From the IMG/VR virus record IMGVR_UViG_3300015608_001493: a stretch of 64,000 bases of DNA. The stretch is one strand, 5' to 3'. Numbering within the stretch: position 1 is the stretch's first letter; each line of letters opens with the position of its first letter. Position numbers and translations under genes: made by a program. Source of the DNA: an uncultured virus (IMG/VR IMGVR_UViG_3300015608_001493). Lineage: Duplodnaviria > Heunggongvirae > Uroviricota > Caudoviricetes. The notes below the pieces were generated by a model. That model ran no database searches. It was not told where the DNA came from and saw only the letters and a program-made list of their open reading frames with translations. This document shows positions 4,138 through 63,595 of the stretch, in pieces.

Positions 4138-4981
4138 CTTTTAATGAGTTCAACATTTTAATTAATTCGGGTTGAGGAGCACAATCACTTTTATCTGTAC
4201 GATAAGAAGTATGGGAATAAATACCTGGTTTTGAGTTAAGCGCATCAAGGTTAATATCAAAGATTTTAGTAAAATCATTGTTTAACCCTTCTTTGATAAC
4301 CGGGTATTTTTCCATTAGATATAAGATGAGTTTCTTCAAACTTTCAAGTTGAGCAGGATGATAAGTTTCAAACCCTGTGTAACCTCGATAGTTTTTTGTT
4401 TTCCAGACATCTTTTTCTGGAATCTGTTGATTATAGGAAGAAATCCACTTGTTGTTTCTTGAAATGAGTCCACCTGCGCTATCCAGTTCAATACCAATTG
4501 TCTGGCTATTATATTTATCGTTTAGTTCGTTTGTCCTATAACGAAACGAAATACGATTACTCGACATAGTAACTCCCAGATGGTGTATCCATTTATCCAA
4601 CGGAACGCATTGATAAATGTTACCAAACCTATCAATTATAAAATGAGCACCTACTCGTCTATGGTCTGTTTTCCACCATTGAATATCACCAACAGCACTA
4701 TTAGATGGACTCACAGTGTGATGTAAAACAATTGCGTTTTTAGATGTGCTTTCGTTAATATACTCCTTTGGAGGTAAATAATCTTCAATAATCTTAATAT
4801 CCATAGATATATCGTGTTCTTCTTTTACAACTGTAAAAGGTTGGGGTTCTATGTCATTTGGTTCAGTCAACTCAGTAGATTCAGTAGGTTCAATAATCTG
4901 AATTGTTTCTGGAAGAGTGACGCTTACATCAGGTTTAGATGTAAACCAATCAACTATAAATTTAATAATTTTTTGCCACAT
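4106..4981 (-). CDS. N-acetylmuramoyl-L-alanine amidase (Amidase_2 family endolysin)
   Basis: IVLHHT, AHFIID, IGIEL and SHTSYRTDKSDC zinc-amidase motifs. Confidence 0.9.
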   Translation of the reverse strand: MWQKIIKFIVDWFTSKPDVSVTLPETIQIIEPTESTELTEPNDIEPQPFTVVKEEHDISMDIKIIEDYLPPKEYINESTSKNAIVLHHTVSPSNSAVGDIQWWKTDHRRVGAHFIIDRFGNIYQCVPLDKWIHHLGVTMSSNRISFRYRTNELNDKYNSQTIGIELDSAGGLISRNNKWISSYNQQIPEKDVWKTKNYRGYTGFETYHPAQLESLKKLILYLMEKYPVIKEGLNNDFTKIFDINLDALNSKPGIYSHTSYRTDKSDCAPQPELIKMLNSLKDEVRSNSSEA

Positions 4982-42381: not shown

Positions 42382-45081
42382 TTATTTGTTGATTTTGGCA
42401 ATTTTTAAGTTGTTTTTGCTCTCTTGTAGTTTAGCCTGAATCTTCTCTCGCTCAATTTGCAACCTTTCTCTTTCAAGGGAATCTTTATTAGATAACTCTG
42501 TGGTTTTCTGAGAGTTATCGTTAATCATCTGTTGAGTTTGTAATGATCTTTCCGCAGCCTTGTTAATAAGGTCTGCGTAATAGTTTCTTTGTTTCAATTG
42601 TTGTTCTTCCAACTTTAAAATTTCATCTACACCATTACCCTCAGAGAATTGAGACTGTCCAATTACTCTGATCTTAGCAATATATTCTTGGGACAATCTA
42701 TCCTTTTCGTTTTCTTGTGCATCAAACGCTAACTTCTCTTTGAGTTGTCTTTCCTGAGATTCTAATGTTTCTTGCTGCATCTGCATTTCTTGTCTACGGA
42801 CTCCCTCATCCTGAATTTCTTTTTCTTTCTGAAGGTCTTTGATTGTAGAATAAATCTTTGATATCGACTTTGCGCTCATAATAGAGATTTTATCCAAGAG
42901 AGTTGCATCTACGGTGTTATCTCTAATGGCCCATTGACGAATCTGTTCCAAAACGATAGAATCATCTACATCACTTGTAATAAACACGCCAAACTTTGCA
43001 AGAGGGAGTTCCATTCCAGGCATTCTGAATATTTCTCTTTCTCCCTCGCTATTAATAAAGTTTTGTTCAATTGTATCTTGTGTTGAATTAAGATATTTGG
43101 CAAACTCGAGCATTGCAGTCTTTGCTTTCTCCCATGTTGCAAAATGCTCCTCGTAAAGATACTTCACGTTGCTTGTACTTCGGTTAATTCCTTGGGCTAC
43201 TCCTGTTGCTGTTTCTTCTGGGGACATATCACCTATAAACTGAGGTGAAATTCCCACTTGCATTAAACATTCGTTTTTAAATACTTCTGCAAGTTTAAGT
43301 TTTTCAAGAACATCCTGAGTTACACTAAGATCAATAACTTGTCCGTAGCCTCCTGTAAGACCCGTGGTGTTTGCACCTGTGTTTAATATCGAGTTGTCCG
43401 TTCCTACAATTTTTAAATCTCTTGCTACTTGTAAAAACTGGAGCAGGTTATTTGGACCCCAATCTTCACCCATTGACTCCTTAGGAATTACATTCTGGTT
43501 GATTGCTAAAAATTTACCGATCTCTGTTTTAAGGAGTTGGTCTGCTCGGTTCATTACATAGTTGTAAAGAACTTGCCAAGGTTTACATTTATTGACAATC
43601 GAGTTTACTGAGTTATATCGGTTAGTAAGTGGGCCACCAAACACTGGAATACTGGTACCAAACAGGTTGTCCGTGGTTGAAAACTCAACAGGGAATTTAT
43701 CTAAGGTAATAAAAATATCATCGCTATAATCAGGGTTAGGGTTTGAACTAAGGTTGATCTTTACTGATCTCCAAAGTTCGTTCTTATAAAACCATTCGAT
43801 ATGTTCTCCAAATACTAATGTATCTTCGTTTTTTTCATCTACTACCGTTGTATCATATATCGGCTCATAAGTTGGTTTATATGTCTCATCTACAATTGCC
43901 GAAAAAACATCATCGCCAGTTTTAATTGTAACTCGTCCAAACTTACGAGGTACTTGAAAATACATATTGGAGATAATTAAAAGTCTTTCTTTATACTCAT
44001 CACCCCTGTATTTTGAATCATTGTTTGGAGCGTTAAACATTTCTTTAAACGCCAAATGGTTTTGAGCAGATTCCATAAGACCCGGAGTATCAATTTGATA
44101 TTTACCTCCTGTTTCCATTGTCATCATGGAACGATAATGAAGGTGTAGTTTATTAAGTTTTTCTACATCCTCTTCTCTTAGTTTTTTACCAAATCGAGCA
44201 ATTATGTTTAAAGGGCTTTCATATTCAAACCAGTGAAACATCACTGAGTTTGATACGTCATCTAAATAAGGGCTTTTTAACCATGAAGCATACCTGGGAT
44301 CAATTACTTCAACGTTGTAATCATCATCTAACAGGTTAACATGTATTAAAGGTCTGTCAGTTGCCAGTTTATTATAGAAAGATTTCTTTTCTAAATCTTT
44401 CAGTCGAAACCTCTTACGATCAATTTCAATTTGATTATTAGCCCATTTTTCAATAGTGAGTCGAAACTCACTATTCATATATTTTTGAATTTTAGGAAGT
44501 GATTCAAAAATACGTTTTTGTTCTTCATATATGTCTGTACCTTCTTCAACTCCCTGATCAGACATAGATTGGTTAAACATCTGTTCAAGAGGTTTAATAA
44601 TCAACTGTCTTAATAGATTGTTTCGTTCTTCAAGTATTTCGTTTGTAGCCTCAGAGTTAATAGCACGAGCCTCCACGTTAACATGATGTTTTCCCAACTC
44701 GCTCACAAGAGAGTTGACAATTGTAGGAACAATTGGATAAAACTTGAGATCATGGTCTAACGAGACTTGATCGTCTAATACATTGAGTTCAGGTGTTTGC
44801 TCACTTGCACCCGGAATGTAATCTTCTGGGTCAATAACTCCTTCTGCTAAATTGAAGTTTTTTCGAATCCTGTCAACATTCAAGTTGATTTGCTGTCTTG
44901 AAATCCACTCGTAATAATAAACAAGACGCTTGATTTTATCGTAATCATTTTCCTCTTTCTCAATCTCACTGATAACAAAATTAAAATCTAATCCACCATT
45001 AGATTTTAAACCAGTGTGAGGAATTGTTTTCTTTGGAAGACGTGGGCGTAACCCTAAATCTCTACCTACTTTTTTTGCCAT
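42382..45081 (-). CDS. Portal protein
   Basis: 899 aa; NFNLAEG, YPIVP, KPWQVLYN, VGISPQ and ETATG motifs; follows the terminase gene. Confidence 0.85.
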   Translation of the reverse strand: MAKKVGRDLGLRPRLPKKTIPHTGLKSNGGLDFNFVISEIEKEENDYDKIKRLVYYYEWISRQQINLNVDRIRKNFNLAEGVIDPEDYIPGASEQTPELNVLDDQVSLDHDLKFYPIVPTIVNSLVSELGKHHVNVEARAINSEATNEILEERNNLLRQLIIKPLEQMFNQSMSDQGVEEGTDIYEEQKRIFESLPKIQKYMNSEFRLTIEKWANNQIEIDRKRFRLKDLEKKSFYNKLATDRPLIHVNLLDDDYNVEVIDPRYASWLKSPYLDDVSNSVMFHWFEYESPLNIIARFGKKLREEDVEKLNKLHLHYRSMMTMETGGKYQIDTPGLMESAQNHLAFKEMFNAPNNDSKYRGDEYKERLLIISNMYFQVPRKFGRVTIKTGDDVFSAIVDETYKPTYEPIYDTTVVDEKNEDTLVFGEHIEWFYKNELWRSVKINLSSNPNPDYSDDIFITLDKFPVEFSTTDNLFGTSIPVFGGPLTNRYNSVNSIVNKCKPWQVLYNYVMNRADQLLKTEIGKFLAINQNVIPKESMGEDWGPNNLLQFLQVARDLKIVGTDNSILNTGANTTGLTGGYGQVIDLSVTQDVLEKLKLAEVFKNECLMQVGISPQFIGDMSPEETATGVAQGINRSTSNVKYLYEEHFATWEKAKTAMLEFAKYLNSTQDTIEQNFINSEGEREIFRMPGMELPLAKFGVFITSDVDDSIVLEQIRQWAIRDNTVDATLLDKISIMSAKSISKIYSTIKDLQKEKEIQDEGVRRQEMQMQQETLESQERQLKEKLAFDAQENEKDRLSQEYIAKIRVIGQSQFSEGNGVDEILKLEEQQLKQRNYYADLINKAAERSLQTQQMINDNSQKTTELSNKDSLERERLQIEREKIQAKLQESKNNLKIAKINK

Positions 45082-45142: not shown

Positions 45143-47302
45143 TTAGCGTTTTCCAAAATGTCCTTTGACATTTTTAAAATGAGAACCTACCGGACTTACT
45201 GTTCTGGAATGAAAATGTGAAGGAAGTCTTGAAATAGTTTTCGGACTTTTTGTATTATTTGCGTCTTTTAAAGTATTGATAATGTGCCTGTTAGTATATG
45301 ATTGTGCAGCAATTAATGCCAGACAATTTGCCACTAAACGGTCAGTATTCAATTTGGTTGTATATTGAAGACACTCTTTAATAAACATTGTATCCCATAT
45401 TTTTTTCACATTGTATAGATCCTTAGACTCTCCTGTTTCCAAGTTGAACTCTGTGGAATATATGTTTTCCATCCAAGTAACCATTTTGTCTATACATCTC
45501 TTTTTAAACTCCCCTTCCATCCTTACACCTATCTCGTCTCGAATTGTTGAGTTTGGCATCATTTCTTGAATTACTATAAGTTCTCTTCTTCTCATTAAGA
45601 ATCGAGATTTTCCTTGTCGAATCACCCATTCGATAAAATCTTTTACGTTTGATTCAACAGCTACCCTTGCGTTATAAAACTCAATAAGGTCTAAGCATAT
45701 CTGATAGGTCTCAGAAGGTTTCTTATGCCTTCCAGTATATGTAGCAACAGGATAAGGTTCTACATATTTTCCGTCTCGCTCATGTGTTCCCATCCAAACT
45801 GTAATACTCATTAATGATTTGGATGTAGAAGTGTCTGTGTTCCAAATAGGGTCTATTCCAGCAAAATAAAGTCCTTCGGGAGGGTTTTCTACTGGCATAT
45901 GCCTAATAATAACCGCTCCTCGGTTGTCCTCGTGAGGGTTAGGTTTTAGTTTTGCTACGGGAACATCGTTTGCAAACTTGTGTTTTACTTTACCTTTTTC
46001 ATCTCGATAGAACGAAACGATAACAGGTTTTTCTTTAATAAGAGATAACTCCTGTTCTTTTAGCATTGTTGTTGGAAAAGGGTTATCCTCTCTTTGATCA
46101 AAAGCCTCTTGAAGAGTTCTTGGATGCTGAGACTTCCAGAGTTTATAAGAAGATTCATCTTTCTTTTTAGCATTCTGTTCTTCAATATCCAGATATTTAT
46201 AGGCTAACTCCAAGTTTGAGTTTCCATCTTGATCATAACATTTAACCACCTTACCTGTGATCTCATCCTTGTAGGCATAATTCCACTCATCTGGAAAAAA
46301 GAATGCGATTGGTTCCATTGAACCCGAAAACTTATCTTCAACAGGGCGAATGTTATATGCTTTTGGATTGAAAGACATTTCTTTCAAATCTTCTGCGTCT
46401 TTAAGTTCACCTACGGCACCTGCTGCTACAAACATTCCTGTTTTAACAGAACCAAACTTAATATTGGGATCAACATATTCTTTTACCTTTTTCAAGTTTT
46501 GATAAATACCTGCCTCCGTAGCATACACCTCTAATGCTGGACCACCTACTGCTTTTGAAAAGTTACGTTTGGTAATAGACGCTTTAATTTTAGATTTATT
46601 ACCTTTGGTTACCTTTTTCTTATTAATTGTCCCCTCAGTGATTTCTCGTTTAAACTGCCAGTTGAAAGTCTCATCTGGCTGAAAGTTTCTATACCAACCC
46701 GTGTGTTCATTGAGGTGATCCCGATAGTTTTGGAGAATTTCCCATTCACCTTGTAGATAAGCCTCTTCAAAACCTACTACTTTAAGGGTTGCCCTATCTC
46801 CAAACCATCCTCGTTTAGCAATTCGAGCCATATGATAAAGAGATATACCTTTTTGTCGGGCTTTTGTACAACCTCCGTCCTGGTCTTCAAGCCAGGCAAG
46901 TTGAAGATAAAGATCGTAGTGATAGTGACCGTCCCAAATATCAGGGTGGGTGGTAGTCATTTCAATCTTATTAAAGATTGGGCAAAAATTCCAAAAGAAA
47001 TATAAATCTGGTGAAATCCATACACCATCTACGATAATTCCTTGCTCACATTTTCTACGTTCTGTCAACCAGAACTGCCTGTATTCTTTGGAGTTTAGTG
47101 CGTAGTCCGTATATCGTTTATCCTTGGCAAACTTTCTTGCCATTGGGTTCCAGTATTCCGTGTTTTTAAAGTTATACTCTCCTGGAAACTTCAGCATTGA
47201 TTTTATAAAAGAATGATACTCCGTGAAAGTCTCAAACCTTCGCTTACCCCATTCTTTTGTTTCAGTGTTAAATTCTAATAAAGAAAGCGGTTTAAATACC
47301 AT
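45143..47302 (-). CDS. terL: Terminase large subunit
   Basis: KARQKGIS Walker A region, EAG, AGIDP nuclease motif, ESN and NTDRL; probable start MVFKP at 47302. Confidence 0.9.
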   Translation of the reverse strand: MVFKPLSLLEFNTETKEWGKRRFETFTEYHSFIKSMLKFPGEYNFKNTEYWNPMARKFAKDKRYTDYALNSKEYRQFWLTERRKCEQGIIVDGVWISPDLYFFWNFCPIFNKIEMTTTHPDIWDGHYHYDLYLQLAWLEDQDGGCTKARQKGISLYHMARIAKRGWFGDRATLKVVGFEEAYLQGEWEILQNYRDHLNEHTGWYRNFQPDETFNWQFKREITEGTINKKKVTKGNKSKIKASITKRNFSKAVGGPALEVYATEAGIYQNLKKVKEYVDPNIKFGSVKTGMFVAAGAVGELKDAEDLKEMSFNPKAYNIRPVEDKFSGSMEPIAFFFPDEWNYAYKDEITGKVVKCYDQDGNSNLELAYKYLDIEEQNAKKKDESSYKLWKSQHPRTLQEAFDQREDNPFPTTMLKEQELSLIKEKPVIVSFYRDEKGKVKHKFANDVPVAKLKPNPHEDNRGAVIIRHMPVENPPEGLYFAGIDPIWNTDTSTSKSLMSITVWMGTHERDGKYVEPYPVATYTGRHKKPSETYQICLDLIEFYNARVAVESNVKDFIEWVIRQGKSRFLMRRRELIVIQEMMPNSTIRDEIGVRMEGEFKKRCIDKMVTWMENIYSTEFNLETGESKDLYNVKKIWDTMFIKECLQYTTKLNTDRLVANCLALIAAQSYTNRHIINTLKDANNTKSPKTISRLPSHFHSRTVSPVGSHFKNVKGHFGKR

Positions 47303-47303
47303 C

Positions 47304-47456
47304 TTAAAAGTTATGTAATTTTTTGTAACGCTGCCACCATAGTTCTCTGGTGTAAGCATACCAGTCTTTAAATGAGTGTTTTGTTTGTCCCCCACAAACA
47401 GGACAATCATACATCTCTGGTGCGTCAGAGTTACATTGCGGACATAAAAAGAACAT
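47304..47456 (-). CDS. Small zinc-ribbon protein
   Basis: MFFLCPQC...CPVCGG; stops 1 nt before the terL start. Confidence 0.55.
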   Translation of the reverse strand: MFFLCPQCNSDAPEMYDCPVCGGQTKHSFKDWYAYTRELWWQRYKKLHNF

Positions 47457-52141: not shown

Positions 52142-52394
52142 TTTGTTTTGCTTTTAAAATTACTTTTTTAGTTTTGTTGTCTACGTTTAAAATATTGAGA
52201 TCATAAGCGTAAAATAAAATACGATTTATCTCTTGATCTAAAAAGTTGGCTATTTCTATTGCCTGATTTGCATTTAGGTTCCACTTGTTTCGTTTAAACT
52301 CGTCGAGTAAAAAACGATAACCTAAACCTTTCTCTCTGGTTTCAGTAAGTAACCTTTGGTAAAGTTCTTTTTTATTAAACTCTTTTTGGTTCAT
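52119..52394 (-). CDS. Hypothetical protein (first gene of the minus-strand block)
   Basis: 91-aa ORF with an AT-rich leader. Confidence 0.6.
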   Translation of the reverse strand: MNQKEFNKKELYQRLLTETREKGLGYRFLLDEFKRNKWNLNANQAIEIANFLDQEINRILFYAYDLNILNVDNKTKKVILKAKQNDSEERV

Positions 52395-52410
52395 ATTATT
52401 AAATTTTTGG

Positions 52411-52490
52411 TAAAGATACTATGTTTTTAGATTTTAACGAAAAAAGTTAGAAAAAAGTTTTGATAATTGGTTTGAGTTCTATTATCTTTA
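52411..52490. promoter_or_regulatory. Back-to-back Bacteroidota-like promoter elements at the strand switch
   Basis: TATCTTTA on minus (52411-52418) and TTTG-N20-TATCTTTA on plus (52459-52490); one mismatch to TAnnTTTG. Confidence 0.45.
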
Positions 52491-53169
52491 CACTAATGAT
52501 TCTGAGTATATACTCCACAGCCTTGAAGTTATGCTTCTGAAAGAGAAGGGTTAATAAAGATTCCTGTGGATGCTACTAGTTGAATATAATAATTGTTTGA
52601 TGTTCTAAACGCCTAAGTCTTTTAAGATATGGTGCAAAGAAGATGGGAAACGTTTAACGTCCCTACACCTATGAGTGGAGTCTTTTAGTAACTACAACAA
52701 AAATGTTATTCACATTATCAGGACAAGTTGGAAGTTTTACTTTTGGTGGTCGTGCATCACTAAACCCTTTTAGTCTCTATTCTTGACGAAATTCTTAACT
52801 GTTATCTCACGGACAGTATTAAAGCCTTGGTGTAAACTGAGGCTTTATTTTTTGGTGTTCCTAATGTTGTTTAGAGGATGTGAGTTATTTACAGAATACG
52901 AGGTGTTTATATGTGTGTTGTTTGGGGTAGTCTTTACCACAACCTCGCTACCCTTCCTCAATTTGGTCAGTACCCCCGGGTACTTTTTCCGGCACGGTTT
53001 CAAAATCCGGCTGGTACTGACCATTCAACTCGTTTATGATTGTACGAAACAATCGGCATTTTCCCAATTGAGTGGATCAATTGGCGCTGAGGTCTACTAC
53101 GGTATTCCTTCTCGTGAAATGTGCGTAAAAGCATTTCAAATTTCACCGTTCATCAAAAAAAAACGAAAA

Positions 53170-53358
53170 ATGAAAGTCGTTGCATTTGTTCTTGGGTTTC
53201 TTGTAGGTTTTTTACTCGGATTTATCTCTATTTGGGTCATTAACTGGGTGGTCACGCATGAGACACTCCTTGTAGGAGTGTCTCAGTTTATCGGGTTGTT
53301 CTTCGGGGCATTTGCGGGATTAGCAAATGCCATCTGCTGGACAGATCGAACGAAATAG
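53170..53358 (+). CDS. Small two-TM membrane protein
   Basis: MKVVAFVLGF... after an A-rich leader; the upstream extension to 52783 looks noncoding. Confidence 0.6.
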   Translation: MKVVAFVLGFLVGFLLGFISIWVINWVVTHETLLVGVSQFIGLFFGAFAGLANAICWTDRTK

Positions 53359-53373
53359 GAGGAATTGATTCCG

Positions 53374-53407
53374 TCATCAAGGGTTGAAATTACTCAACCC
53401 TTGATGA
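53374..53407 (+). terminator. Perfect 14-bp hairpin
   Basis: TCATCAAGGGTTGA-N6-TCAACCCTTGATGA; no U-tract. Confidence 0.5.
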
Positions 53408-53794
53408 GTAGGTGAAAATGGGAGTGACTACTGTAATGGTAGTTGCTCCCTTTCTTTTGGAAGAAACAACACGTCATAGAGAGGAGACAACATTTAGTTG
53501 TCTCAAAACCAGCCTCTTCGGAGGGTAGGGGGTACATCCTGTTTTGGAGGATGTGGGGCTGGTTATTTAACATTTTCTTAACGAGTTTGTCGGAGAGAAA
53601 ATGTGTGACAAGATGACGTAAGTCATTGATTGTCAGGGGGTTGGTGTAAAAAGAAATCCCCCACAAAAAAGCATGAATCTTCGCTGATGTCAATATTCGT
53701 ATTGCATCAGTAGATATAAAACTATCATGCTATCGGTAGTCCACGATAGCATTATATAACGCCCGAAGGACAAGGGTTAAAATGCTAAACGTTT

Positions 53795-54160
53795 ATGCTG
53801 ACGGTAAAAACTAAGGTACGCGAATACATCAAAAACGGCAATCCGGTATTTGTCTATGCCCTCGCGGGTAGCAAAGAAGAACTCGCCGAGTACAAAAAAA
53901 TCCAAGCCGATTACTATCGGGAAGACGAGAAGACCAAAGAACCTCTCTTCTTCTCACCCCGTCCTGTAAATCCCGGCACTGTGTTGGCTCCCAATCGTGA
54001 AAACACACGTTTCGTTGTGCAACAAGACTTGGAAGCCCAGGTCGCTGCCACTGAAACCGCCAAAAATGCCCAATTGGGCAAACTGCAAGCCATGCAGGAG
54101 TTTCTGGGCTTGACAAAAAGCCAAATGCAGCAAATGCTGCTTGGTCAATTGTCAATCTGA
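53795..54160 (+). CDS. Hypothetical early protein
   Basis: 121 aa; GNPVFVY...YYRED...PLFF; followed by a strong hairpin. Confidence 0.75.
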   Translation: MLTVKTKVREYIKNGNPVFVYALAGSKEELAEYKKIQADYYREDEKTKEPLFFSPRPVNPGTVLAPNRENTRFVVQQDLEAQVAATETAKNAQLGKLQAMQEFLGLTKSQMQQMLLGQLSI

Positions 54161-54161
54161 A

Positions 54162-54900
54162 ATTAGCACACACTGGATTCGTCTGGTGTGTGCTAATCAA
54201 TACTTAGGATGCTTTCTGCCAGTCCGTAAGGATGATCCGAAGGTAGAGGCGTAACGTGAGAAGGATATCGTTACACAGTTTGAAGTATCAGTTCACCCTC
54301 TTTACGGGTGAGGTTCCTACACCTAATGTAGGTTTTAAGAGTCGTCACACTCTTATGTAATTTGAGTGATAAAACTATGGTACGAACCCATAGTGTCTCA
54401 TTGTTCTAGAAAAAACACTAATGTGCGTTAGTGTTAACAATGGGATTGGGTTGTTCAATTTGTAGCATAATGAACAACAAGATTAAATGCTACTGCTCCA
54501 AGCGCCAGAGCAAATTAAAGGGCGGGGATGCTGGTATCCTTACGTGAGATTAAAACCAGTAAGTTTGAAGGTTAGATTGAACCTTCCGTAATAACCAAGT
54601 CTGATACGTGAAGTCAGACCGTTTATAAGTTTCTGCCAGATGCCCAAAGGGTTGTGGGTCGAAGTGAAACTTATGTAATAACCAATAAAACACTACCGTA
54701 AGGCGTAGTGGGTATAGCCAATGAGTTGTCCATTTGAGGCCTCCGTTAAAATCTATACTAGTGTTTTATTAAAGTTAATCTGGTTGTGTACACAACTATC
54801 AATATCAGTGAACTACTAACTCATTGATACAGATTAACCTTTTTTTCTTTTTGAGTCACCAACGGTGGACTCTACTCTTCGATGAGGAAAAGAAACTGGA
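54162..54900 (+). ncRNA. Structured noncoding tract (contiguous hairpins, multibranch elements and pseudoknots)
   Basis: No plus-strand ORF of 60 aa or more; near-continuous stems, several with G-U pairs and TTCG/GTAA loops that favour the plus strand. Confidence 0.55.
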
Positions 54901-54933
54901 TCGTATTTTTTTTCATCTCTTAACTCTAAAAAT

Positions 54934-55332
54934 ATGTGGTTAAAAAACCAGAGCTACACAATGTGTGTAGTTAAAACTCTTGACGAGGCGATTGCGGCTT
55001 CGCAGCGCCGAGGACATTCAGTTCTGTTCTTCGGAACACACCAACAGTTTCACGAGTCCGATATGGGCAGTGAAGTGAACCCTGTTGGACACTTCACTGA
55101 AACAACTGTTTGGGCCGGAGGGACCGGCTCCGGCAGAACAGAAGAAACCATAACCATTTATCGCGACGCCGAAGGCCTCTTCGTAATTGAAGAGGTTCAA
55201 GTATGGGGGAGCTGGGATAAGATTGTATTATTCCGCATACCATACGATGGCCTTGCCATCGCGCCTTACCACCCCACCGCTAATCCGCGCTATTCTCGTA
55301 GCGCGCCCGAGTATTATCAAAAACCATCGTAA
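54934..55332 (+). CDS. Hypothetical early protein
   Basis: GC-richer 132-aa ORF with an AT-rich leader. Confidence 0.65.
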   Translation: MWLKNQSYTMCVVKTLDEAIAASQRRGHSVLFFGTHQQFHESDMGSEVNPVGHFTETTVWAGGTGSGRTEETITIYRDAEGLFVIEEVQVWGSWDKIVLFRIPYDGLAIAPYHPTANPRYSRSAPEYYQKPS

Positions 55333-55359
55333 CTTGCCAACCAACTGACTACGGTTCAC

Positions 55360-55560
55360 ATGAAAATTATAGAAAAATCTACGGGAAAGCATCTTGAACT
55401 TCCGTACTATGGGCGGGACTTATTTGGATTTCACCAAAATCCACGGCACTATCGAATCATTTATAAAGAAAATAAAATTATCAAACAATATGAAAGTCAA
55501 GTTGGTTCTCAACGTTGGTCATATGAAATTGATATAACTGATAAATTTAAAATACTGTAG
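55360..55560 (+). CDS. Hypothetical protein
   Basis: 66-aa ORF with ATG start. Confidence 0.6.
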   Translation: MKIIEKSTGKHLELPYYGRDLFGFHQNPRHYRIIYKENKIIKQYESQVGSQRWSYEIDITDKFKIL

Positions 55561-55669
55561 TCGCAATCCTCCCTTTCGCAGATGATGGTTTAGCAGCGAA
55601 GACGGGATCAGGGTCCACGACTCCAAAACGGCGTCGCAATCCTCCCTTTCGCAGATGATGGTTTAGCAG
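55560..55669. CRISPR. Repeat-spacer-repeat (37-36-37 nt), candidate CRISPR mini-array
   Basis: Two identical copies of GTCGCAATCCTCCCTTTCGCAGATGATGGTTTAGCAG (55560-55596, 55633-55669); reverse complement ends GGATTGCGAC. The repeat is certain, the CRISPR identity is not; no cas genes in the window. Confidence 0.45.
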
Positions 55670-55910
55670 TTATTACATCACCAAGTCTTCGGCTCTTTCA
55701 CCGCAAATGAAAGAACAAATCCACAAATATGACCCGCAAGGTTGTAATCGGAGATAACTTGGTGACCAGTATCAGAACTTTGTGGTCTGATTAGTAAAGA
55801 AGTTTGATGGCTCACTACCATCGGCTATATAATTCCTCTAAGTCGTCCTTAGAGCAGTGAATCCTATACTGTAAAAAGAAGGATATTCTTTAATTAAAAT
55901 TTTTCATCAG

Positions 55911-56279
55911 ATGCGAAGAGAAACAACAGAAAGTATTGTCATTGCAAGGGTCCACGAAGTGGACGAAAATGACAACCCTATCGACCTCTCGTATGAGGTC
56001 GAAGTAAACGCAGAGTTTGGAGATGATGCGGAAATCTTCCGCGAATGCCAGCGCCAAACTGGGAAACCGAACCTTGTCTTAGTATCGGTGCGCAAACCTT
56101 TGACTAACATCTCAACGGCGGATTTATACGCCATGATGATGCTGATTGAGAGGAAGGCAGAGAAGTACGTCAGTGTCCATAACACGTTCCCACCCATGGG
56201 ATCGTATATGGACAAACTCGATGCGCTCCGAGCGCGCATCGACTCGGAAATCAAGTCGAGGATTGACGACTTGATTTAA
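55911..56279 (+). CDS. Hypothetical early protein
   Basis: 122-aa ORF with an AT-rich leader. Confidence 0.7.
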   Translation: MRRETTESIVIARVHEVDENDNPIDLSYEVEVNAEFGDDAEIFRECQRQTGKPNLVLVSVRKPLTNISTADLYAMMMLIERKAEKYVSVHNTFPPMGSYMDKLDALRARIDSEIKSRIDDLI

Positions 56280-56603
56280 GATGCGACTCACAGGCTCCGT
56301 GAGTATAATTAGGACAACCTGATCCCTATATCATCAATAGGGCGCGACAGTCTCTTCGTTGAGACACAATGGTAGTGCGTGAAACTACTATTTTTTAACT
56401 CGTCTGAGCGAGTATAAACAGTCATTTAGGCTCAGAGCGTTCACATTGATGTGAGATATGAATATTAATGATTGCAAACAACTGTTTGACCAACAGTGCC
56501 AACTCTGATATTTCAGGATGTTGGTCAAAATTTCGTTGTATCAAATTGAAAATAGTCAAATTGTCTACATCCTGAACAAGACGTTAAATAAAGTAGGGAT
56601 TAA

Positions 56604-56852
56604 TTGAAAAAAAAAAAAGAAAAAGTGAAAAAAATTGTGTATCCAAATTACGCATTCCTGTGGCGTAGTAATGAAACGGAAACCCAACATTTGGGTTTCC
56701 CAGTCAAAAAGGAACAGGAATTTGAAGAATGGTGCAAGACCAACAACATTGGCTTTGAACCTGAAAATATTCAGGGAATCACCAAATCTGATTGCCATGT
56801 ATTTTGGCCAATTGGAAAATGTCCTGTAACTTTTGTCCAAGAGACATTATAA
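56604..56852 (+). CDS. Hypothetical protein
   Basis: ORF; start uncertain (A12 run at the 5' end, GTG alternative). Confidence 0.5.
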   Translation: MKKKKEKVKKIVYPNYAFLWRSNETETQHLGFPVKKEQEFEEWCKTNNIGFEPENIQGITKSDCHVFWPIGKCPVTFVQETL

Positions 56853-56914
56853 AACATGAATATTGAAACTGCATCTGCACTTACACGGAACCCGTCACCG
56901 ATAACCGGGAAAAA

Positions 56915-57619
56915 ATGAAAAGTACAACCATTGCGACGAACCCTCAATTCTTCCTTACGGCCGGCGGAAATGTGCTCGCCTATGGTGGCCAGTACGCGGC
57001 ATTTCATAATGTTGAAGGAGACTTCCTGAGAATGGCGTCTCTTGAAGAGGCCGAGTTCCTTGCTGGCGTGTTGCAGCCGGTGAACTTCCCGGCCGACCGG
57101 ATGCCAGATTTTGAAAACCCCAGCGAATGGGTTTTCTTATGGTCGGTCAAATCCAGCGATTATTCCAATTATCGGCCGGAAACGTGTAATAACGGAGGCG
57201 ATTACGCCTTCTATGTTACTACCTCGTACTATGCTCGTAAGACCCGAAAGGGTTGGCAGTTCTGCGCCCTGGATGTTCATGGAACTTCGGCAGAATTTGA
57301 TTACGACGAGATAACTGGAAATTTCCAGTCCACGACATGGACACCTGTGATTGGGGCCAGCCACGAAATTGCTCTATATGTTCAAGGCGACGGCTCACCG
57401 CTTATCTTGGATGAAATCACGAAAACGGTAGGGTTACCGTTCAATGCTACCGATATTATTAACGATCCTAACGATGAAAACCCTATGGATTGGGCTGTAA
57501 TACTGCCCACATTTTCCGAACTTCGTAGGCGCGCATTGCGCCTACGCGAAATTGGGTTTACACGTCCTAATGCCCACCAACGTAAAGGACGACGTGGTAA
57601 TATGAGCAAACGCCGATAA
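56915..57619 (+). CDS. Hypothetical early protein
   Basis: 234 aa; TCNNGGDY and TSAEFDYDE motifs; basic tail. Confidence 0.75.
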   Translation: MKSTTIATNPQFFLTAGGNVLAYGGQYAAFHNVEGDFLRMASLEEAEFLAGVLQPVNFPADRMPDFENPSEWVFLWSVKSSDYSNYRPETCNNGGDYAFYVTTSYYARKTRKGWQFCALDVHGTSAEFDYDEITGNFQSTTWTPVIGASHEIALYVQGDGSPLILDEITKTVGLPFNATDIINDPNDENPMDWAVILPTFSELRRRALRLREIGFTRPNAHQRKGRRGNMSKRR

Positions 57620-57772
57620 AAAAAAATATTTAACTGGTTCTTATTTGCGTCAGCAATAAGCGTAACACTCAACCAGTTAAAATTCCAAATCCTATCATCC
57701 ATAGAGTCTCTCTCCGTGCTCTCGATAGGTACTAAGGAGTGTAAACCCAACGATGTAAATTAGTTGGTTTCT

Positions 57773-57847
57773 GGACTCATCGCCAAGTTGGTGAAGGCAC
57801 TTGACTCATAATCAAGAGATACACAGGTTCGAACCCTGTTGGGTCCA
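57773..57847 (+). tRNA. tRNA with CAT anticodon (elongator Met or Ile2)
   Basis: Acceptor GGACTCA/TGGGTCC; anticodon arm CTTGA-CTCATAA-TCAAG; GGTTCGAACCC T-arm; no encoded CCA. Confidence 0.9.
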
Positions 57848-57872
57848 CTTTATATTCATTAAAGTGTCAATT

Positions 57873-58115
57873 ATGAAAGCAGAGGAAGCGAAAAAGAAAA
57901 CTGAAAATGCAATTCTAACAAACAGTAATAGTTTGTTAGATCAAGTTTATGCAAAAATCGAGGAGGCTTGTCAAAAAGGCGAGTTCTTTTGTAAAATAAA
58001 GGAACTACACCCTTTGATTAACGATAAACTTGTCGAAGACGGGTTTAAAGTTACATTTTACCCTGGTGATTATAGAGGCGAAACAGACGCCTATTATAAA
58101 ATATCATGGGAATAA
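57873..58115 (+). CDS. Hypothetical phage protein
   Basis: MKAEEAKKKT...LVEDGFKV...KISW, a common small phage protein pattern; start moved downstream of the tRNA. Confidence 0.75.
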   Translation: MKAEEAKKKTENAILTNSNSLLDQVYAKIEEACQKGEFFCKIKELHPLINDKLVEDGFKVTFYPGDYRGETDAYYKISWE

Positions 58116-58785
58116 AAAATAACCCAAGTAACGAACTCAGGCGAGGTAGTTATGAGGGTTTAACTAATAACAACTGCCGAACATCCGCGATAAGGACTAC
58201 GGAGAGTATATAATGTGAGAGTTTCGAACTCACCAGTTGTTTTTTTTTTCATTTTTCATTTTTCATTTTATGACACTAATTTTGAACCCGTCAGGCTCAC
58301 TGAGCAGTGACAAAGATTACGATTGGGACACCAAGTGAACCTGTAACCCTTGAACACTTAGGGTTGGTATGTGAGAAAGTGTTACGTTACGGTGAGAATC
58401 CATAACAAACATGTGGGGCTTATGTCTTGAAGCACAATAGAGCATTGCAAATTGTGTAAAATACAGTATAAGGGAGAAATCCTAAACGAGCAATAAAATT
58501 TTATACTGTACATATCAAGCATTAGTGCGGACTTAGCACATATTTAACGGAACTATTGTTGGTGGAATAACAAGTATTTACTTGCCTCACAAAATAGGTT
58601 ATGTGCAAAACATCATGTAGTGGTACAGCCTTAATCTGTACAAGTCTTAAATAAAATTCCTCTGTGGCAGTAAAACCACATGATAATTAAAAAGATTCAC
58701 AAGAGAATAGTCAATATCTTGTCCCGACTGTTGGGTAAAACAGTAGTCGTTAAAGGTTAACTCACTACCTAATTTTAAAAGTGAG
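58116..58785 (+). ncRNA. Structured noncoding tract
   Basis: 670 nt without a long ORF; many stems (AACAACTG/CAGTTGTT, AACCCT/AGGGTT, TACAGTATAA/TTATACTGTA, GTACAG/CTGTAC). Confidence 0.45.
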
Positions 58786-61988: not shown

Positions 61989-62213
61989 ATGTTTAGTTTA
62001 TTTAAAAAATCCGAGCGTTTAGATATTGCTGAGAAAATTCTTGAAAGAGATAAACGTTTTAATCAGCAATACCAGGACGCTCTGAAAATACACACCTTAG
62101 AAAAAGTCGTTGCGTTTTGTATTATGGTAATTGTTGTTTTTATCATATATTTGCAACTTCCTAAATACAAGGAAACAACTCATTACAAAGAGTATTATGA
62201 ACAAAATCGCTGA
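61989..62213 (+). CDS. Small membrane protein
   Basis: Single TM segment VVAFCIMVIVVFIIYL. Confidence 0.6.
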   Translation: MFSLFKKSERLDIAEKILERDKRFNQQYQDALKIHTLEKVVAFCIMVIVVFIIYLQLPKYKETTHYKEYYEQNR

Positions 62214-62624: not shown

Positions 62625-62711
62625 CGAGATGTGGCGAAACTGGTAGCACGCAGCAGACTTAAAATCTGCCGAGCAGGAATGCTCATACGGGTTCGAGTCC
62701 CGTCATCTCGA
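62625..62711 (+). tRNA. tRNA-Leu(TAA)
   Basis: CGAGATG/CATCTCG acceptor; GCAGA-CTTAAAA-TCTGC; long variable arm; T-arm. Confidence 0.92.
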
Positions 62712-63017
62712 CTCTATCGTTAATAATTTTAGTAATAATGTCTAAATATTTTTGAGAAGTTTTTGGTGTGATATATGATTGCTGACTTGTATCTATTATA
62801 CATAGATCAATTTTCGCATTTTGGGCTTGATTATCAAGGTTGTCAAGACGAAACTGATTTCAACCAGTTTCTTCGAACACATGTTCGTTAAATTAAAATA
62901 AAATACTAAATATCATAAAGTAGGGAAAGACCTCTGGATAAGGAACTATTCCAGTAGGTCTTCAAAGTTCCAATGTGATAAAAAACTTACGGTGATGAAA
63001 TTGGAATAAACCGTATT

Positions 63018-63089
63018 GCCGGATTAACTCAGTGGTAGAGTAACTGTTTTGTACTCAGTAAGTCAGGGGTTCGAATCCCTTATCCGGCT
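63018..63089 (+). tRNA. tRNA-Thr(TGT)
   Basis: GCCGGAT/ATCCGGC acceptor; ACTGT-TTTGTAC-TCAGT anticodon arm with a U31-U39 mismatch. Confidence 0.85.
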
Positions 63090-63178
63090 CTAAACTAAAA
63101 ATTAAAATTCTGAAAAATTATATACTTTAAAATGAATTTTTTATTATTTATATAGTTGTATTAGGAGGCTTATTTATA

Positions 63179-63475
63179 GTGGCTTTTGACATAGCATCTG
63201 CTATGTCAATTAACTATGTCGAAGCAACGATTAAAGATTTAGTTTCTCAGCAAAATATTTCTGGATCAAAAGATAACACGAAAACCAATTTCAGATATAT
63301 TGTTATTACTGATAACGAAACTTTTATTGTTGAAAATAGTATTCTTAATGGTAAATTTGATAATTCGAACTTGTTTTTTCGTCTTGAAAAAGATAAAAAA
63401 TACAAGTTTAAAGTATCAGGATTTGGAAAAGGGTTTTTAACAGATTATCGAAACATTTTGTCTTATTCTCAATAA
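63179..63475 (+). CDS. Membrane-anchored phage protein (true N-terminus probably upstream, frameshifted)
   Basis: YIVITDNETF...KFDNSN...KFKVSG..YRNI domain; hydrophobic in-frame extension upstream without an ATG. Confidence 0.6.
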   Translation: MAFDIASAMSINYVEATIKDLVSQQNISGSKDNTKTNFRYIVITDNETFIVENSILNGKFDNSNLFFRLEKDKKYKFKVSGFGKGFLTDYRNILSYSQ

Positions 63476-63482
63476 GACAATT

Positions 63483-63569
63483 GGAGAGTTGGGTGAGTGG
63501 TTGAAACCGACGGTCTTGAAAACCGTTGTACCTGCAAAGGTACCGTGGGTTCGAATCCCACATTCTCCG
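63483..63569 (+). tRNA. tRNA-Ser(TGA)
   Basis: GGAGAGT/ATTCTCC acceptor, G73; ACGGT-CTTGAAA-ACCGT; long variable arm. Confidence 0.93.
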
Positions 63570-63595
63570 CTTCATAAATTTTAAGGATGGTAGGC

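Follow-up and report, generated by a model that had tools for sequence, protein, structure and literature searches.

The window, meaning the whole 64-kb stretch of viral DNA that was analysed, belongs to a tailed phage. A PHROG scan of 54 open reading frames (ORFs) identified a portal, a large terminase, a lysin, and head, virion and tail proteins. In tblastn, the terminase resembled its counterparts in Bacteroidota phages of the crAss-like and Flavobacterium FpV4-like kinds, with a best identity of 25.5%. Genes read leftward until approximately 52.4 kb and rightward from approximately 52.8 kb, and a compact repeat-spacer-repeat unit lies 2.8 kb into the rightward part, flanked by plus-strand genes on both sides (Table 1). 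The flanking genes are real, because homologues of them exist. The repeat, GTCGCAATCCTCCCTTTCGCAGATGATGGTTTAGCAG, is present twice in the window, in copies that are 100% identical and 73 nt apart from start to start, and the original prediction of two identical 37-nt repeats around a 36-nt spacer was borne out, with positions and spacer as it had quoted them. Searching the window with this 37-mer at up to three mismatches returned two matches, against 0.00 expected from 100 shuffles; there was no third copy on either strand, even at up to ten substitutions, and no copy of the second repeat family of the host described below. The length of the spacer is typical of that host, whose own spacers are 32-41 nt long, and mostly 35-37 nt. 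The repeat RNA folds weakly (-5 kcal/mol, z-score 0.06), and neither the repeat nor the whole unit, on either strand, folded better than shuffled sequences.

The unit had been proposed to stand without cas genes, and this holds within the 64-kb window: no Cas model matched in 52 of the 54 ORFs with PADLOC, or in all 54 with PHROGs, the genome itself probably being larger. ORFs near the unit matched no Pfam, PHROG or PADLOC family, and no known anti-CRISPR family was recognised nearby. On the minus strand, no sigma-70-like or TAnnTTTG site was found at 55670-55910, the promoters of the phage possibly differing from these patterns; sigma-70-like sites were at chance level (14 versus 13.0 expected), there was no TAnnTTTG motif near the unit, and its right flank bore no likeness to the host leader.

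The surroundings of the unit have several features of their own. The G+C content is 42% over 53400-58300, versus 35.5% across the window, and the region 52300-58300 combines this raised G+C with few long ORFs, a tRNA-Met, ribozymes, and an enrichment of terminator-like hairpins (17, versus 5.0 +/- 2.5 in shuffles); it seems to abound in RNA that is structured or non-coding. A Pistol ribozyme (Rfam RF02679) lies on the plus strand 730 nt downstream of the unit, and several contigs from the sequencing runs X6 and X7 match just 56398 to approximately 56441 and are unlike the window on either side, indicating that the same ribozyme occurs in other genomes in those samples. Further downstream is a match to the Hatchet ribozyme (RF02678) that scores below the gathering threshold, in an area (58428-58612) that contigs from X6 and X7 skip or replace. 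The window also contains a cluster of three tRNA genes, separate from the tRNA-Met, and a single very long ORF with a helicase-like part.

Table 1. Positions of the features discussed, in the phage window unless a host locus is named.
Feature	Position	Strand	Remarks
ORF, 3578 aa	5000-15736	-	Dda/RecD-like helicase part at residues 2620-3150; remainder without family match
Portal	42382-45081		
Large terminase	45143-47410		
Hot spot of host-spacer matches	53397-55827		10 of 14 matches; repeat unit inside
Protospacer of sp065	54558-54592	+	35/35
Upstream gene, 132 aa	54934-55332	+	no known family; metagenomic homologues at 55-68% identity
Putative ORF, 66 aa	55360-55560	+	last base of stop codon is first base of repeat copy 1
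CRISPR repeat copy 1	55560-55596	-	leader-distal in crRNA sense; equals 38 host-array repeats; minus strand reads CTGCTAAACC...GGAGGATTGCGAC
Spacer, 36 nt	55597-55632	-	61% G+C; target not found in collections searched
CRISPR repeat copy 2	55633-55669	-	first repeat in crRNA sense; exact copy
Protospacer of sp113	55694-55728	+	35/35; host contig 340846-340880; 24 nt from repeat copy 2
Protospacer of sp104	55730-55765	-	36/36; host contig 340192-340227
Downstream gene, 122 aa	55911-56279	+	no known family; homologues at 81-98% identity
Pistol ribozyme (RF02679)	56398-56461	+	64.7 bits, gathering score 34.5; E 3.5e-10; full model length
tRNA-Met	57773-57848	+	
Hatchet ribozyme match (RF02678)	58383-58543	+	45 bits, gathering score 51; E 1.6e-6; full model length
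Protospacer of sp111	62176-62211	+	36/36; within plus-strand ORF 61989-62213
tRNA-Leu(taa), tRNA-Thr(tgt), tRNA-Ser(tga)	62625-63570	+	cluster
Truncated-repeat joints, host array	L003 3195-4106 and 6243-6331		host contig ~331.8-334.9 kb

Megablast of 54000-58000 against phage records gave no match, the exact repeat was absent from viral_contigs, and its 26-nt core was absent from metagenome_contigs. Relatives identified through the terminase comprised eight loci, one being an identical 5-kb fragment and seven sharing 55-67% identity, and their nucleotide likeness to the window ends near 52,400. None contained the repeat at up to eight substitutions, with just one of them (L009) extending as far from terL as the array does. 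Neither the two flanking proteins nor a six-sequence profile of the upstream protein found a locus in viral_contigs.

The host array and its type III-B locus

The original prediction implied that some host array should carry a similar repeat, and that finding it would name the host. An identical repeat was indeed found in an array of a Saprospiraceae metagenome-assembled genome (MAG): in an exact scan that covered one genome per species, the 37-mer occurred 38 times, all on one contig of this MAG. At up to three mismatches the array comprises 127 repeats on one strand (host contig 331822-341950), with 117 spacers of 32-41 nt, and at the same threshold the repeat was present in one of 401 genomes sampled from the host's family, which was that MAG alone. 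A distance of 61 nt separates the end of the array from cas2; cas1 comes next, and both genes read towards the array. The same contig holds cas2, cas1, cas6b, a CRISPR-type CorA gene, cmr1, cas10, cmr3, cmr4, cmr5 and cmr6. The PADLOC E-values were 1e-62 for Cmr1, 4e-47 for Cas10, 2e-19 for Cmr3, 1e-13 for Cmr4, 3e-17 for Cmr5, 1e-22 for Cmr6 and 6e-89 for CorA, while the Pfam domains Cas6b_N and Cas6b_C of cas6b, located at L004 12714-13523, were found at 3e-26 and 7e-18. As the array adjoins cas1, cas2, cas6b, the CRISPR-type CorA and cmr1-6 with cas10, it is therefore assigned to type III-B, and the host system is, judged by its gene content, a type III-B system of the CorA kind.

The Cmr system of Bacteroides fragilis is reportedly also type III-B with a CorA effector and SAM-AMP signalling. 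The host locus, known here from its genes alone, resembles it in having cmr1-6 with cas10 and a CorA-family membrane protein, but differs in having a split cmr4, a reverse transcriptase, a second cas1, and two arrays of another repeat. The split divides cmr4 of the MAG into two frames (L014 4136-4471 and 4472-4891), through either an assembly frameshift or a real pseudogene; if real, the Cmr complex of this strain would be defective despite its four perfect spacers against the phage. The second adaptation module (L014 7010-8967, 9287-11798 and 12269-14697) includes the reverse transcriptase (351 aa) and a cas1 (341 aa), and is flanked by two arrays with 28 and 35 repeats of the other repeat, which ends in AGGATTGCGAC. 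The 59 spacers of these two arrays gave nothing against the window beyond one 14-nt match. Between cas1 and cas6b of the type III-B locus, five ORFs of 638, 625, 317, 233 and 109 aa (L004 6841-12292) have weak matches to an LmuB-like ATPase (5e-8) and to ZorA (ZorA-like, 2e-7), and may be an unrelated defence island within the CRISPR locus.

The older part of the array has several irregularities. At five places (Table 1), a 12-nt stretch takes the position of a spacer between two truncated repeats, generating together with them a 16-nt palindrome, TCCCGAGTACTCGGGA, and a 292-nt block with such joints is duplicated. A 902-nt interruption (L003 ~4190-4970; host contig ~332.8-333.6 kb) contains a transposase-like ORF, and looks like an insertion sequence inside the array.

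The direction in which the unit would be read as crRNA can be deduced from this locus. The reverse complement of the phage repeat ends in ATTGCGAC, the 8-nt handle that had been proposed, and three independent points back this handle and the associated claim of a minus-strand crRNA opposite to the plus-strand flanking genes. Firstly, cas1 and cas2 read into the host array from the leader side that is expected for the minus-strand sense. Secondly, the repeat variants are polarised: approximately 89 cas2-proximal repeats carry G, the derived state, at a variable position, the distal repeats carry T, and the far end can be recognised as the old end of the array because aberrant repeats and the insertion sequence are found there. 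Thirdly, the host's second repeat, GTCGGAAGGCAAGCCAGTTTTAGGTAGGATTGCGAC, and the phage repeat in reverse complement have the same final 11 nt, AGGATTGCGAC, and of the two GTCGGAAGGCAAGCCAGTTTTAGGTAGGATTGCGAC arrays one is found, when read in that sense, downstream of its own cas1. These comparisons support the minus strand of the window, CTGCTAAACC...GGAGGATTGCGAC, as the probable crRNA sense. The phage repeat itself is the older T variant.

Host targeting of the phage and variation at the locus

The naming of the host through its repeat was strengthened by the rest of the same array, which also holds spacers against this phage. The 122 inter-repeat stretches of up to 60 nt were compared with the window by BLAST, and the matches were extended to full spacer length. 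Fourteen spacers matched over their full length: four without mismatches, two with two mismatches, one with four, three with five, and four with six to ten. Two others were left out, namely sp114, a low-complexity sequence of 11% G+C (26/29 at 58240-58268), and sp079, of which just 16 nt matched. Three of the fourteen come from the old, T-variant part of the array and have two to four mismatches, and all four perfect matches come from the newer part; across the fourteen, spacer rank and mismatch number were uncorrelated (rho -0.16, p 0.58). No common motif was found in the flanks of the protospacers, which fits a type III system that does not need a PAM.

These matches are concentrated around the unit. 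The 2.4-kb hot spot that surrounds it is 3.8% of the window, giving a binomial probability of 5e-12 for its share of the matches, in an interval picked after they had been seen. Six of the hot-spot matches are on the plus strand and four on the minus strand, and as they point both ways they are therefore uninformative on which strand is transcribed. The target RNA of sp104, one of the two perfect matches beside the unit, would be a minus-strand transcript heading towards it.

The phage's own spacer has a different profile. The original prediction had proposed comparing it with phage, plasmid and host sequences; no target was found in the collections searched, which are incomplete. At up to three mismatches, the spacer matched nothing in the window, or in 81 genomes comprising the host MAG, array included, and 80 relatives. 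No exact match was found in viral_contigs, and no match to its 26-nt core in metagenome_contigs. Using blastn, phage records returned just 17-20-nt matches at E=5, which is chance level, and plasmid records no target; matches in the seven related phage loci were 10 nt or shorter, and the longest in the 65,918-nt end of the host contig that contains the cas genes was 9 nt (E 5.2). A G+C content of at least 61% is found in 198 of 63,820 36-nt windows of the phage (0.3%), 184 of which lie at 53.4-58.3 kb, compared with 8,408 of 19,965 windows of host flank DNA and 14 of the 122 host spacers. By composition, the spacer looks like host-type or host-array DNA, rather than DNA of the phage or a close relative, and its presence in the unit seems incidental.

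Sequence from other samples places the repeat within the phage, and suggests that the locus varies. Among the runs listed, the segment 54800-56600 was found in 20 DNA runs of six studies, mostly from wastewater and activated sludge, and in no RNA run; four of the 20 may be the source. Contigs of four of the 20 runs (X6, X7, X9 and X10) were examined. The X7 contigs break off within the repeats, at 55589 and 55640, which is what a repeated 37-mer would lead one to expect. X10 comes from a different study and year; one of its contigs, 170 nt long, spans 55407-55576, and hence a variant phage there has the repeat at the same junction. Independent assemblies therefore confirm the repeat within the phage flanks. 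In X9 and X10, sequence before 55772 is unlike the window, meaning that the two perfect protospacers beside the unit are replaced or absent there; the difference at 55670-55771 fits CRISPR-driven divergence. Contigs of these two runs lack cover over parts of 53872-55275. The host's leader-side flank appears in both as a loose end behind 55669, and hence the host is present in those samples.

The number of repeats at the junction may also vary. A 3252-nt contig of X6, at a depth of 26, spans 55110-58434 and joins 55559 to 55633, leaving one repeat and no spacer. It is the only bridging contig among the contigs listed; the two-repeat form is seen in the window itself, and none of the listed independent contigs shows the spacer. 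The contigs of these runs were, we assume, built at k=31, and the single repeat could be a collapse during assembly at that k. However, a loop of equal depth should break a contig at k=31, rather than vanish, and hence we lean towards a real single-repeat allele. One- and two-repeat alleles may then record the integration of a spacer into a solitary viral repeat by the host's Cas1-Cas2.

Taken as a whole, the unit is a real virus-borne mini-CRISPR array, a further example of an already known kind, whose source is the type III-B array of the Saprospiraceae host of this phage. That it is a genuine host-derived mini-array in a phage is very probable. What it does for the phage is much less certain.

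What the unit may do

Our main reading, held tentatively, is that the unit acts as an RNA decoy of the Racr kind, a form of counter-defence at the RNA level. The unit would be transcribed on the minus strand from its own promoter, and host Cas6b would cleave every repeat at a point 8 nt from its 3' end. This would give an RNA of AUUGCGAC, the spacer and the remainder of the repeat, which host Cmr complexes would take up. The RNA of the unit would then occupy Cas6b and Cmr in competition with the crRNAs that the host directs against the phage, in the manner of RNA anti-CRISPRs, with the spacer being of little weight and perhaps incidental. Several observations favour such a decoy. Firstly, its repeat is identical to 38 host repeats, and a cas6b gene lies beside the host array. 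Secondly, type III-B targeting of the phage is heavy, and the 3.8% of the window that surrounds the unit takes 10 of the 14 matches. Thirdly, the spacer is without a found target, and has a host-like G+C content of 61%. Fourthly, the one-repeat contig lacks the spacer and, if it represents a real allele, suggests that the repeat is the working part. There is also a precedent, in that solitary viral repeats are described in the available text of PMC10651486 as inhibiting CRISPR through the binding of Cas6f and Cas7f.

Other observations weigh against a decoy, some of which apply equally to any function as a guide. The flanking genes, the Pistol ribozyme and the downstream tRNAs all run against the crRNA sense, the minus strand at 55670-55910 is without a promoter-like site, and the right flank is unlike the host leader. 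No known anti-CRISPR family lies near the unit. The RNA anti-CRISPRs tested in PMC10651486 were, as far as its available text goes, not of type III, a term that occurs zero times in the main text. In type III systems, Cas6 stands outside the effector, and Cmr complexes that were already loaded when infection began would stay in place. Assembly at k=31 could have produced the single-repeat contig, and given the split cmr4 in the MAG, the system of that strain may be inactive.

It is possible, but unlikely, that the unit's crRNA instead arms host Cmr against the transcript of a competing phage, plasmid or prophage, the classic use of viral mini-arrays. The complete repeat-spacer-repeat form would yield one full crRNA with a spacer of host-typical length, and the available text of two reports provides precedents, in the SPV1/SPV2 mini-arrays (PMC6858448) and in leader-less mini-arrays of phages (PMC11656645). 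The 61% G+C of the spacer would suit a temperate element of host-like composition, and the difference at 55670-55771 in the variant phage of another study implies that alleles vary at the locus, as in SPV1/SPV2. On the other hand, no target was found in the window, the host MAG and its 80 relatives, viral_contigs, phage and plasmid records, metagenome_contigs or the seven phage loci. Furthermore, most mini-array spacers target relatives, whereas the G+C content of this one is rare in the phage lineage (0.3% of windows). The very cell in which the phage replicates would probably suffer from a CorA-linked type III response, and the possible allele in X6 has no spacer at all.

A functionless scar ranks third, and is likewise unlikely. 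Such a scar would have arisen when illegitimate recombination brought in a piece of the host array, or when a captured repeat received a host spacer by ectopic integration. Leader likeness, promoter signal and target were all not found in the regions and collections searched, and the unit, which is oriented against the genes around it, sits in a variable region that lacks synteny and is absent from relatives. With 14 of 122 host spacers having a G+C content of at least 0.61, its spacer could be an ordinary host spacer, although it is absent from the single host array available. Against a scar, the two copies match one another and the host repeat at 37/37 positions, implying no decay, and runs from three studies, dated 2016 to 2019, all have the repeat at this junction. 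The position of the unit within the most targeted 2.4 kb is also suggestive.

The strand of the neighbouring genes raises a further possibility, which we consider improbable: that the unit is read through with the plus-strand genes, yielding an RNA complementary to the repeats of the host's pre-crRNA. Its duplex with pre-crRNA would, improbably again, block Cas6b or invite RNase III. The tag/anti-tag rule is established for type III systems, and counts in favour of this idea: on the plus strand the spacer would be followed by GUCGCAAU, a perfect anti-tag to the 5' tag of the crRNA, and the RNA might thereby read as 'self' to Cas10, a part of the proposal no more probable than the rest. By analogy with the pairing of tracrRNA to type II repeats, the formation of new anti-phage crRNAs might be stopped, a consequence as doubtful as its premise. 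A separate promoter would be unnecessary, as the flanking genes share the plus strand with the Pistol ribozyme, tRNA-Met and all later genes, and the duplex would pair at 37/37 positions with T-variant host repeats and at 36/37 with G-variant ones. Against this, mature crRNPs keep only 8 nt of the repeat, and would hence be unaffected, and the anti-tag protects only against a crRNA with the same spacer, which the host MAG does not have. Keyword searches of open-access text, which were non-exhaustive, found no precedent in the form of a phage anti-repeat or anti-tag mimic.

Finally, it is very improbable that the second repeat and the spacer are products of an assembler looping through a host-array spacer, in a phage that has one solitary repeat: the one repeat of X6, in the only bridging contig among those listed, the host-array contigs in related samples (X9 and X10) and the host-like G+C of the spacer would all fit, but the spacer is absent from the host MAG array, the possible-source runs hold 0.97-0.98 of the sampled words compared with 0.95 in X6, which fits the presence of the spacer-junction words, and most assemblers would presumably bridge a 37-nt repeat with their longer k-mers or reads.

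Relation to known viral repeats

The available text of two reports allows the unit to be compared with other virus-borne mini-arrays. Viral mini-arrays have repeats identical to those of the host (PMC11656645), and the arrays of the Saccharolobus viruses SPV1 and SPV2 have host-like leaders with promoters, and spacers that match the sister virus (PMC6858448). As in the cases described in the accessible parts of both, one or two spacers lie between host-identical repeats in a virus without cas genes, the host array targets the virus, and strains vary where CRISPR targeting is dense. Unlike the SPV arrays, as far as PMC6858448 was available, the unit is without leader likeness and without a found target, its host has a bacterial type III-B system with CorA, and its carrier is a large Bacteroidota phage. 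The composition of its spacer is also not phage-like, unlike that in most viral mini-arrays described in the available portions of PMC11656645 and PMC6858448. No account of such a mini-array in crAss-like phages or Saprospiraceae turned up in non-exhaustive keyword searches of open-access text.

The preferred reading, that of a decoy, makes two kinds of viral RNA the closest functional comparisons. To judge by the available text of PMC10651486, the unit is like Racrs, such as RacrIF1, in being a viral copy of the host repeat without cas genes, for which binding and cutting by Cas6 would be expected, and in having a possible single-repeat allele (X6). It is unlike them, on the same partial text, in that the window has two repeats and a spacer, and would also give a complete crRNA, and in that the sequence directly upstream showed no promoter and the neighbouring ORFs no recognisable acr genes. 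Cracrs, according to the available part of their description (bioRxiv 10.1101/2024.10.29.618823), redirect DNA-binding effectors (V-A, I-E and I-F) to repress cas or toxin promoters via partial matches. The unit would share with them, as proposed here, a mini-array-like viral RNA that loads host Cas proteins and competes with host crRNAs, but differs from what that part of the preprint describes in that the host effector targets RNA, and the spacer has a match of at most 9 nt in the end of the host contig with the cas genes. Cracr-like repression of cas promoters is unsupported, the longest spacer match in this 66-kb contig end being those 9 nt.

What is distinctive here is therefore the combination of a type III-B/CorA host, a carrier related to crAss-like and FpV4-like phages, a non-phage-like spacer, the position of the unit in a hot spot of targeting, and the possible coexistence of one- and two-repeat alleles. 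The host of an uncultured large wastewater phage is named from both sides, as host spacers match the phage, and the phage carries the host's repeat. To the published cases compared above, which in the available text of their reports concern archaeal viruses or type I and V systems, this adds a bacterial type III-B (Cmr/CorA) case from the Bacteroidota. A one-repeat allele may co-occur with the two-repeat form inside the most densely targeted stretch of the phage. The locus hence offers a compact natural system for asking whether repeat RNAs blunt type III immunity, which strand matters, and whether viral repeats gain or lose spacers.
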